DNA of 64,000 nucleotides from Octopus sinensis (Eukaryota), in NCBI RefSeq assembly GCF_006345805.1, contig NC_043024.1, positions 17,856,001 to 17,920,000 of the forward strand, written 5' to 3'. The notes beneath the pieces were generated by a model. It saw only the letters and a program-made list of their open reading frames with translations, did no database searches and was not told where the DNA came from. A program made the position numbers and the translations under genes. Below, piece after piece: positions 34,446 through 62,651 of this stretch (its first letter is position 1; each line of letters begins with the position of its first letter).

Positions 34446-34476
<31 letters not shown>

Positions 34477-34910
34477 ATGGGAAGCTTTATGAAAATAGAC
34501 AAAAGACGAAGGCAGGTGGGAAACAAACAAACAATTGTATTAGTATGGTGCTCAGGAAATATAAATAAAACAAGTCTTTAACGTTTCGAGCCTACGCTCT
34601 TGAACAGAAAGATACACAGAGAGAAAAAAAACACAGAAAGAAGGAGAGAATGTATACATATAAATATATCTGCTCATTCATATATAATATATATATATAT
34701 ATATAATGGGAAGCTTTATGAAAATAGACAAAAGACGAAGGCAGGTGGGAAACAAACAAACAATTGTATTAGTATGGTGCTCAGGAAATATAAATAAAAC
34801 AAGTCTTTAACGTTTCGAGCCTACGCTCTTGAACAGAAAGATACACAGAGAGAAAAAAAACACAGAAAGAAGGAGAGAATGTATACATATAAATATATCT
34901 GCTCATTCAT
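34477..34910 (-). repeat. Tandem duplication (period 229 bp) of the short HHR-like repeat (copies 3 and 4)
   Basis: 34477..34681 matches 34706..34910 with no differences seen; separated by (TA)n. Confidence 0.9.
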
Positions 34911-35047
34911 ATATATATATATATATGCTTATATAATACATATACCTACATATATACATAAATATACACACCACACACACACATCTATATACATAAGCAA
35001 GCTACTTACCACACAGCCACTCCTACACCTATATATATATATGTATA

Positions 35048-40252: not shown

Positions 40253-40302
<50 letters not shown>

Positions 40303-40364
40303 AAATACAAAATGGGACAGAAACACAAAACATCCAGACAGACAATACAAAGAAAACAAGGACG

Positions 40365-40465
40365 GGTCATTCGAAGTTTTCTTTCCTCAGTCAAGTACCA
40401 GATTATCTTCGCAATTTTGGCTGATTATACTTGAGATTGCTCTAATCTGGCCAGCCCCAAGGAAA
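40365..40465 (-). ncRNA. Pseudoknotted hammerhead-like RNA motif, truncated copy
   Basis: Four perfect helices: GGCUG/CAGCC, CCAGAUUA/UAAUCUGG, GCAAU/AUUGC, UCAAGUA/UACUUGA; followed by CUGAGGA. Confidence 0.6.
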
Positions 40466-45110: not shown

Positions 45111-46026
45111 GACGTTTTTAAGATGCTACATAAAGCAGACTGTGAAACCTAGTGCAACCTCTGGTCTTATCAGCTCCTATCAAACCAGCCAATCCATGCC
45201 AGCATGGACAACAGACATTAAATTTGTTGATGATGATGATAATCATGATGATGATGATATCTGTATGTATATATATTTATATACATACATATTCACACAC
45301 ATGTATACATAGAAACGCAGACATATTTTGTATGTATGCAAACATGCACACTAACGCACACTCATACGCAACTGCCAGCACCACCAACACCACTGCTGTC
45401 TAAATTGATCCATAGTAAAGAATGAGTGATTACATAACGCCCCCAGACATCCACCACTCTTACTGCTACTGCCCATACTAGAATCTTAACTAATCCTTAA
45501 TTAAGAGCTAAGTGAGGAACTATGTAACACACATCAGTGGATGAATGCAGTCAAGTGTGAATCATCTTACGGTCTAGTGGACTGTCTTGGAGGAGATGGT
45601 GTGGAGGAGGATGTCTGGATGGTGTACATGGTTTGTCTGATTGGATGGTGGTGGCGGGTTATAGAACAGATAATTATGGTTATGGTAAAGATATATATAT
45701 ATACTCATATATATATATACTCATATATATATATACTCATATATATACACACATATATATACATACACACATATATATATACACACACAGAGAGAAAGAG
45801 AGGTGCAGTAGGTGCAAGCATGGCTGTGTGGTTATGAAGCACATCTGGCAACCATGTGGTTTGGGGTTCAGTCCCACTGCACAACACCTTAGACAAGTGT
45901 CTTCTGTTATATTTCCAAGGCGACCATTGCCTCCTGAGTGAATTTGATAAACAGAAACTATATGGAAGGTTAGTGCATATGTACACACACACACACACGT
46001 GTATATATATATATATATATATATAT

Positions 46027-46745
46027 AGGTAAACAGTAAAATTAATTACAGACATGGACAAGAACATGAAACACCACAGAGACCGACACAAGACCACCCA
46101 CGGACATTCGAAGCCCTCAGTCATCAGTCAAGAACCAGATCCTTAGCAATTTCGGCTGATTAATTCTGGAGATTGCTCCGATATGGCAGCCCTCCGCAGG
46201 GAAATCTAAGCCAAGCGCATAGATCCCTGGAAGAAAGCTTCGATGTATACAACGAAAGGACGGAAAACAATCGAAGTACACAAACAAAAATACAGAATAC
46301 GTGACCAATAAGAATACAAAAACGTAAAAACAATAACGGTAAAAATAAAAATAAACAACAAAACAAAACCAGGACGTAGGACAGGGTCTTTCGACAGGAC
46401 GATTTGAGTTGGGGCTGGCTTGTGAAGTTGTGCCTAAAGGCACGGGGAGAACGAACAAATACGTTTGTCTTCTGCGGCTGCTGAAAACGAAAAGAGCGCT
46501 CAACGGCGGCTAGCTGTCACGTGAGAACAGAAGACAGGGGAAAGGGACAGAATGAAAGAGAGCAGAAGGTGGACGAGGGAGGAGAAGAAGAGACAGATCG
46601 AGAGGGGGTGGAGGTGAGAGAGATAGAACAACGTAGAAGGGGGGGGAAACGGATGGAGAGGAAAGAAAGGAAGTTGGAATAAGGGAGGAGAGAGAGAGAG
46701 AGAAAAAGAGACAGATTAAGAGTTGTATCAAAGCTAGAGAAAAAA
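46027..46745 (-). mobile_element. CpG-rich ~720-bp non-coding element inserted in (TA)n, carrying the pseudoknotted HHR-like motif
   Basis: (TA)n on both flanks, CpG-rich relative to surroundings; part is homologous to 40300..40465. Confidence 0.6.
46103..46246 (-). ncRNA. Pseudoknotted hammerhead-like RNA motif, longer copy
   Basis: Minus-strand order GGCUG..GCAA-UC-UCCAGAA..CAGCC-GAAA-UUGC..UUCUUGA-CUGAUGA. Confidence 0.6.
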
Positions 46746-46757
46746 ATATACATATAT

Positions 46758-46790
<33 letters not shown>

Positions 46791-46794
46791 ATAA

Positions 46795-47612: not shown

Positions 47613-48852
47613 CTCAGATACATAACATATGGTATAATTATAAACGGGGCAAATTTCAGCTGTTTCTCTGCAGACTGAAAAAATGATGAATGACTTTAAT
47701 TGATTTTCAAACCTTATTCGGTTCTCATCAGAGGCATCCACATCATTCTGACAGCCTCCAGAGAAAGAAGTAGCCAAACTGTTTATATACTCAACAAATA
47801 TCAGTGGCCTGTCAATGGGGATCTTAGTTCACATAGTATCAAGGTACGATATACGTAATATATGGTATAATATACAGACACACACACACTAATATATATA
47901 CACACACACACACACACATAGGCACACATGCACATGCATGCAATATAGTAAACTATGATTAAGTAAAGCCTAAATGGAATGATTCATGAAACTAAAAGAC
48001 TTATCTTCCATTGTCTTTCCAAAACCCATGTAACATGTTTCTTGTAGTTGTAAAAACCATTAACTCCCGACCCATGCCAGTCACTATCTTCAGCAGGTGA
48101 TAGAAATACTTAGACGGAGGAAGTTAGAAATTTTATACAAACTGCTGTGCCACAAAATGTTACCAGAATTTATAACAATCAGAGGAGGTGAGAGAACATT
48201 AATTTCCAAACCAACCTCGGAATGTATAAAATTTTATAGTAAAACATTATGAAGTATAGGAAATTTGGCAATAAAATTGGGTAAGTGGCATTTATTGCAA
48301 TGCCAAGATAAATACTTTCAGCTTCTTGGTGTTTTTTCCTTTTCATTTTGGAATTAACAGCATTTGACTGTCTGGTTAAATCGCCTGGTTCCTTTTTGTG
48401 GACTTGTTATGTTTGCTGGGTCAGTAATTATCTCTAAGAAGCCATTCTATCACCTGTTGAGGACAACTACACAAGGGACCATGGGTTTATGCTTTTACAG
48501 GCACTAAGGATATAGTTTCTGCCTAGGGATGATATATACATATATATATTTATATATATATATGTATGTATGTATGTATGAATGCATGTATGTATGTATG
48601 TGTGTGTGTATGTATGCAAATATTGAACAATGAGACTGAGTGCTCAACACCACATTGGTGGATAAATATTCTTTATTTGTATATTAAGGCTAACATTGGT
48701 TTCATGCTAATGGATACAATTTTCTACCCTATTACATTGAACATTGCCAATCAGCTCCATTTTGGATTTAAATCCAAAATAGAGATAAACTCCAATATTC
48801 CAACAAACAGTCACCTCAATATACAAATAAAGATGTATGTATGTATGTATAG

Positions 48853-62560: not shown

Positions 62561-62651
62561 TTTTAGTACGATCGTTTCATACAAGGACAGGTTTTATTAA
62601 AAGTTGCAAAGATTACAGCATATAAACGAGTCCCGTACTCATCAGCTAAAA
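62561..62651 (-). ncRNA. Mirror copy of the same hammerhead
   Basis: Left arm of the palindrome. Confidence 0.8.

Follow-up and report, generated by a model that had tools for sequence, protein, structure and literature searches.

The window analyzed here is a 64,000-nucleotide stretch of the Octopus sinensis genome (assembly GCF_006345805.1, contig NC_043024.1, positions 17,856,001 to 17,920,000). At positions 46028 to 46745, its minus strand carries one 5'-truncated copy of a 778-nt noncoding tandem retroelement, here called family A. The 3' end of the unit is fixed at 46028 and runs into a (TA)13 target (46002 to 46027), and an (AT)n tract (46746 to 46793) lies at the truncated 5' end. A second family A copy on the minus strand, older and shorter, is located at 40301 to 40465; it has covarying helices (stem I and P4; see below) and a G12-to-A change. 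The longest ATG-initiated open reading frame of the circularized family A unit spans 125 codons.

Read 5' to 3' on the minus strand, the element presents the strands of a hammerhead core in a non-circularly permuted order. The series begins with the 5' strand of a closing helix, P0 (46245 to 46233), and a hairpin, P5 (46230 to 46197), the latter being the fourth arm of a junction that would replace the A9-G10.1 link. The 5' strand of stem II (46191 to 46187, the G10.1 side) and that of helix P4 (46186 to 46180), the counterpart of the stem I-II interaction helix, follow. Block S (46165 to 46176) consists of a stem III strand with U16.1-C17 (46176 to 46171) and a stem I strand (46170 to 46165), and block G (46146 to 46159) consists of the stem II 3' strand (46159 to 46154), GAAA (46153 to 46150), and the other stem III strand (46149 to 46146). 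A kink-turn bulge and the P4 3' strand (46141 to 46135) occupy 46135 to 46145, so that a kink-turn pattern, absent from the first-pass annotation, lies between stem III and P4. Half of block C (46121 to 46133) then supplies the second stem I strand (46133 to 46128) and CUGAUGA (46127 to 46121), and the P0 3' strand (46118 to 46105) closes the motif. The linker between stems I and II is 3 to 5 nt long. P0 starts 2 nt after A9 in the subfamily of the window copy and immediately after A9 in older family A subfamilies and in the LINEs described below; in the youngest subfamily, P0 has two mismatches adjoining A9, and P4 has one.

All of the segments named in a first-pass annotation of this DNA are present in the order that it gave, and its predicted cut, 3' of the C opposite 46171, falls on the bond between 46171 and 46170, after C17. 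Stems I to III cross one another as pseudoknots, and the block order, S-G-C, is that of the published type SGC. The annotation had entered as a caveat that the 5' strand of stem II is not contiguous with CUGANGA; this detachment turned out to be conserved and to be a new feature of the motif, which we refer to as the split form. Single-strand folding of the motif by a method without pseudoknots was unremarkable (z, -0.69), and an Rfam search at gathering and E-value thresholds returned no relevant match.

A few other segments of the window deserve mention. At 47731 (minus strand) and 10692 (plus strand), CUGAUGA is followed by a hairpin, and at 47731 there is also a GAAA in the ordinary order; both segments look like minimal Penelope-type hammerheads. 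Positions 62645 (minus) and 62750 (plus) mark an inverted pair of one CUGAUGA-bearing segment, reminiscent of the inverted 5' ends of Penelope-like insertions. A 229-bp head-to-tail repeat (34454 to 34926; 99% identical) lies in (TA)n and lacks CUGANGA.

Family A is abundant in the genome. A repeat search with 46028 to 46745 yielded 89 scored matches from 1,682 candidates, and a genome-wide pattern count gave at least 1,478 units that are intact at the cut site. At 30 loci, insertions have a 3' end fixed on (TA)n and a variable 5' truncation, and arrays comprise as many as four units in head-to-tail order, joined by a junction that hardly varies. Among 44 units from 24 loci (six overlapping loci were dropped), divergence was 0.6% inside one array and 1.4% between arrays, and private variants were common to the units of one array. 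The invariant junction and the variants shared within arrays fit either a circle or a tandem transcript. Contigs of four sequencing runs cover the family A unit, although they show neither its ends, its strand, nor its level. The family is young, as the first-pass annotation had proposed, in that most of the 44 units differ by only 0 to 2% from their majority sequence; the window copy itself, however, lies 8.9% away from it, an outlier that has several 1-nt indels and has lost 2 nt in the kink-turn, differences that may reflect either decay or an error of assembly. Likewise, the single mismatch noted in stem I exists but is restricted to the window copy, whereas the family A majority has a perfect 6-bp stem I. 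With its mismatched stem I and damaged kink-turn, the window copy may be a dead element.

The comparison of genomic copies that had been proposed as a check bears out the helices. In a sequence-only MAFFT alignment of 28 of the 41 distinct family A candidates (near-identical copies and copies without the upstream part were excluded), pairing across the six helices is 87% and 16 of 44 pairs have changed on both sides, versus 24 to 43% pairing in slid controls of the same alignment. Because the 28 copies are related, these counts reflect a handful of events. P0 (helix 1; 14 pairs) is 84% paired with 5 pairs changed on both sides; two-sided changes occur in 4 of the 6 pairs of stem II and in 2 pairs of P4 (90% paired), and helix 6, in the half of block C, is 95% paired. 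The inner part of P5 is 89% paired, with no two-sided change inside family A but with covariation across LINE loci. A loose core pattern, GAAA before CUGAUGA, has 6,350 matches in the genome compared with 563 for a reversed control, which indicates that the motif occurs more often than by chance. Sixteen of 20 matches picked for diversity belong to family A subfamilies and three other families; the latter fold as family A does, with unrelated helix sequences.

The split form is not limited to noncoding elements. In the Octopus sinensis genome, it lies downstream of the end of the open reading frame of RLE-type LINEs of two families, B and C, which we take from their C-terminal motifs to be HERO-like. 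The LINE protein fragment of these families matched no Pfam family; PF00078 is found upstream in homologues. One protein homologous to a related LINE protein shares 86% identity with an Octopus bimaculoides record. The HERO-like LINEs ending in the split motif in this genome are young. Families B and C have one motif per 2- to 4-kb element, lack the kink-turn, and are inserted mostly outside (TA)n. Their short spacing was considered as a type II hammerhead, a reading rejected because there is no room for hairpin stems and the partner strands lie upstream. Some family C copies (L054, L059, L060, L073, and L237-L238) continue past the 3' end into family C sequence, and two copies follow each other head to tail at a distance of about 3.7 kb, a layout to be expected of a circular or tandem template. 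A decayed LINE family (L217, L219 to L222, L230, L233, L241, L243, and L244) has a kink-turn-type 3' motif that is very similar to the motifs of metagenome loci L145 and L175.

Among 80 metagenome RLE-LINE loci, 35 have the split motif within 500 nt after the protein match, and the controls gave no antisense match, none in coding regions, and 0 or 1 in each of 20 shuffles. The split parser, at its threshold, passes 41 of 350 core-kept shuffles. No motif was found in the remaining 45 loci; 19 of the 80 have less than 300 nt of downstream sequence. While CUGANGA and GAAA were imposed by the search, the U-H rule, G10.1, and N7 were not: U16.1 is present in all 35 motifs, position 17 is C, A, or U (13, 11, and 11 cases) and never G, and N7 is free, with all four bases occurring. 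G occupies position 10.1 in 34 of 34 distinct LINE loci, where the 10.1-11.1 pair is G-C in 30 and G-U in 4. P0 directly follows A9 in 34 of 35 loci, a four-way junction with no unpaired base is possible in 25 of 35 (versus 20 of 350 shuffles of upstream DNA), and a kink-turn pattern is seen in 21 of 35. Pair positions show three to six pair types, the parse itself being fitted to pair. In a protein tree of 67 rows that contains no named HERO reference, the motif is found on several deep branches, and one 18-row branch is wholly without it. In phage contigs (124 pattern matches in 15 of 64 parts of the collection), no convincing split form was found; nine matches pass the split parser with scores of 17 to 20, which is the chance rate, and seven of the nine lack U-H. 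Ordinary type II hammerheads are numerous in these contigs (L359, L362, L365, L370, L371, and others of L346 to L469).

Family A copies bear two kinds of footprint at the predicted cut. The first is a pile-up of copy ends. Genome-wide, 1,290 copies are truncated in the 16-nt window at the cut (scored as nonelement DNA just upstream of the stem II 3' strand, at a stringency different from that of the intact-count pattern), compared with the 1,478 intact ones. This corresponds to a loss of about 47% in that window; in the first 60 intact copies, the loss per 16-nt window upstream is 3.7% (21/564), the comparison covering the cut window and its upstream side only. The first 40 truncated copies listed are all short insertions of about 120 to 200 nt, and 39 of them start at or 3' of U1.1 (P = 1.6 × 10^-5 if ends are uniform); the remaining one reaches 4 nt further, and none reaches 1 to 3 nt further. 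Since over a thousand copies begin at the predicted cut, it is likely that the RNA cuts itself in the animal.

The second footprint consists of insertions at the bond itself. Nine family A copies have 1 to 8 extra bases exactly between C17 and U1.1; eight of these inserts start with A and six are longer than 1 nt, while two control bonds have two single-base extensions and none, respectively. The inserts occur mostly in 5'-most units, often truncated 22 to 54 nt further on. In arrays L210 and L209, only one of the two units has the insert, which is a poor fit to a single closed circle carrying it. A search for inserts at the bond in the older family A subfamily, among an uncounted set of intact copies, found none. 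Three of the nine inserts mix A with G (C2:15663857, C3:5861696, and C30:3604370). Mixed tails combine A with G. It was also observed that P5 is precisely deleted in 3 of 60 copies (L263, L271, and L272) and that both units of one array are affected; thus, the template copied may already have been devoid of P5, or the hairpin was bypassed by the polymerase. Taken as marks in genomic DNA, the pile-up and the inserts, in a noncoding family, are new footprints that suggest cutting in vivo: in the animal, RNA ends appear to arise at the bond predicted to be cut, with the upstream end in some cases gaining a tail before the polymerase crosses.

We consider it highly probable, judging from the sequence record, that the motif is a non-circularly permuted hammerhead core opened between A9 and G10.1, which would cut the retroelement RNA after C17 once per 778-nt unit. 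P0 and P5, together with stem II and the core, would make up a four-way junction, thereby keeping the usual active site in the absence of the A9-G10.1 bond, and P4 and the kink-turn may stand in for the stem I-II contact. A tandem transcript would be cut to unit-length RNA, and a borrowed reverse transcriptase would use nicked (TA)n for priming, at a fixed site located about 145 nt 3' of the cut. Where the RNA has been cut, the polymerase would run off at the new 5' end, which would give the many 120- to 200-nt copies; where the RNA has been rejoined (probably into a circle) or left uncut, it would read through and produce head-to-tail arrays, and an occasional crossing of the cut with an A-rich-tailed upstream end would leave an insert. 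The first-pass annotation had proposed a rearranged self-cleaving hammerhead in a nonautonomous retroelement; a rearranged hammerhead in such an element is well supported by the covariation, the unforced U-H rule, and the footprints at the predicted bond. In published work on non-circular hammerheads (PMC10085705), RNAs of types SGC and CSG, which have this I/II/III/P4 connectivity, cleave in vitro, and block C is assumed to be uninterruptible. A literature search for tested ribozymes without the A9-G10.1 bond found none.

There are three other explanations. (i) The fold might no longer cut but serve as a recognition or stalling structure for a reverse transcriptase, with truncations arising from stalling or from transcription start. 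In its favor, structured 3' untranslated regions (UTRs) of R2 are template-recognition modules (PMC13708176), roughly half of the units counted, and all of the arrays, continue across the site unmarked, and cutting within a LINE 3' UTR would detach the open reading frame from the end used for priming. However, the catalytic bases and the U-H rule have been retained amid free turnover of the helix bases. Furthermore, the limit of truncation is the scissile bond, where a polymerase moving 3' to 5' would already have unwound the helices, and a transcription start offers no upstream 3' end that could gain A-rich inserts. We regard a noncutting fold as improbable. (ii) It is just as hard to favor, and if anything slightly harder, an RNA whose cutting requires dimerization of tandem units or assistance from a protein, like the minimal PLE hammerheads, which cut poorly and as dimers (PMC4209133). 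The tandem layout of family A and the short stem I-II linker would suit such behavior, but all four stems are full length in family A, SGC ribozymes with a 3-nt linker are described as cutting in cis (PMC10085705), and LINE families B and C have a single motif per element. (iii) An ordinary type SGC hammerhead is very improbable; in this reading, the four bases immediately 3' of CUGAUGA would build stem II, a bulge of 2 nt would precede GAAA, and the upstream strand would be a decoy or switch. This 4-bp pairing is possible in the youngest family A subfamily (window copy included). It is, however, 54% paired in the 28 copies, at shuffle level and without covariation, is absent from the older window copy at 40390, and reaches at least 4 bp in only 5 of 34 LINE loci, and it was rejected.

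The helper supplying the reverse transcriptase would be either a Naiad-type PLE or a HERO-like LINE; target and helix lengths favor the former and activity favors the latter, in the form of family C. Dependence of family A on a PLE, as first proposed, is plausible. The (TA)n target, the tandem layout, and the motif geometry of the octopus Naiad fit; on the other hand, the motif also ends young HERO-like LINEs, cephalopod Naiads are reported as long inactive (Craig et al. 2021; PMC8557442), and no sequence-sharing coding element was found. Specifically, no coding or autonomous partner sharing sequence with the family A unit was identified among the fetched loci, and when the unit was compared by blastn with families B and C and with the decayed kink-turn LINE family, a single embedded family A copy was the sole instance of a shared 3' end.

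The published Naiad data (PMC8557442) offer a closer look at this link. Naiad PLEs, like family A, target (TA)n and occur as tandem and 5'-truncated copies, but they are coding, whereas family A is noncoding. They were reported to lack canonical hammerheads, eight being flagged "HHR_half_core". By eye, 5 of 13 published Naiad 3' ends carry the split form or type CSG (names were taken from the order of the metadata sheet, and roughly 600 nt of each end was covered). The coral element Naiad_Amil shows the complete split form: P0 follows A9 directly, and P5 is 6 bp long. Naiad_Ovul and Naiad_Obim, from octopus, have stems I, II, III, P4, a kink-turn, and a weak P0 but no P5; stems I and II of the octopus Naiad are 6 bp long and stem III is 5 bp long. 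Naiad_Esco is a degenerate form, and 7 of the 13 ends showed no motif in roughly 600 nt. Naiad_Hpol and Naiad_Smim are intact type CSG, with one extra U after A9 in Naiad_Smim. Family D (L048 and L049) is the published octopus Naiad. The ends of the oyster elements Naiad_CGi and Naiad_Sglo (supplement of PMC8557442) share a different conserved structured 3' motif that lacks the hammerhead core and may be another ribozyme. Types SGC and CSG and the split form correspond to a single circle opened at different places. PLE hammerheads commonly have one additional base between positions 9 and 10.1 (PMC4209133); this tolerance of a bulge suggests a route by which the split could have arisen.

If these observations are taken together, it is reasonably likely that the non-circular hammerhead circle has a fourth opening, in which the core is broken at A9-G10.1 and reclamped by a four-way junction, and that this form is an active ribozyme shared by Naiad PLEs and HERO-like LINEs, which are unrelated classes of retrotransposons, and by their noncoding parasites. 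Non-circular hammerheads would thus be ribozymes common among animal retroelements, the additional base that follows A9 in the Naiad CSG forms would mark the route of the split, and the cleavage state would decide between run-off copies and rolling-circle arrays. Because the CUGANGA block is interrupted, hammerheads would have more possible permutations than the six counted so far. Current search models would miss a large class, to judge from the 6,350 matches versus 563 for the control in this genome alone. The split form offers an answer to the apparent absence of hammerheads in Naiads, and type CSG gains these elements as hosts. Likewise, the copy-end pile-up and the inserts make the cut-and-circle route of Penelope-type retrotransposition testable from genome sequence, and a core with a free helical port at A9 would be a new handle for ribozyme engineering.

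We found no description of the split form in a search of the openly accessible literature. A 2026 paper mentions hammerhead variants with additional helices; a term search of one source that it cites found no such variants. In contrast to types I to III, which have the block order CGS, GSC, or SCG without pseudoknots, the family A motif has crossing stems. Its nearest relative is type SGC (HRIMA-1 and variants; Eckert et al. 2023, PMC10085705), with which family A shares the S, G, C order, the short I-II linker, the I-II helix, and all core bases. Block C, however, is intact in type SGC, with stem II directly after CUGANGA, and is split in family A, where the stem II and P4 strands lie 5' of block S and P0 and P5 replace the A9-G10.1 bond. 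Type SGC is also reported only from metatranscriptomes, whereas the split form is found in retroelements of an animal genome. Type CSG, described there from two metagenome sequences, has the same cyclic connectivity as the split form but is opened elsewhere, and its CUGANGA adjoins stem II without P0 or P5.

With regard to the element as a whole, the non-LTR retrozymes of animals (bioRxiv 10.64898/2026.07.22.740005; PMC4209133) are, like family A, noncoding tandem repeats with one ribozyme per unit; circular RNA and rolling-circle reverse transcription by a PLE have been proposed for the retrozymes. They are defined by type I hammerheads, which the family A motif is not, and retrozyme search models would not match its strand order. 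Unlike these retrozymes, family A would prime at one fixed site on (TA)n.
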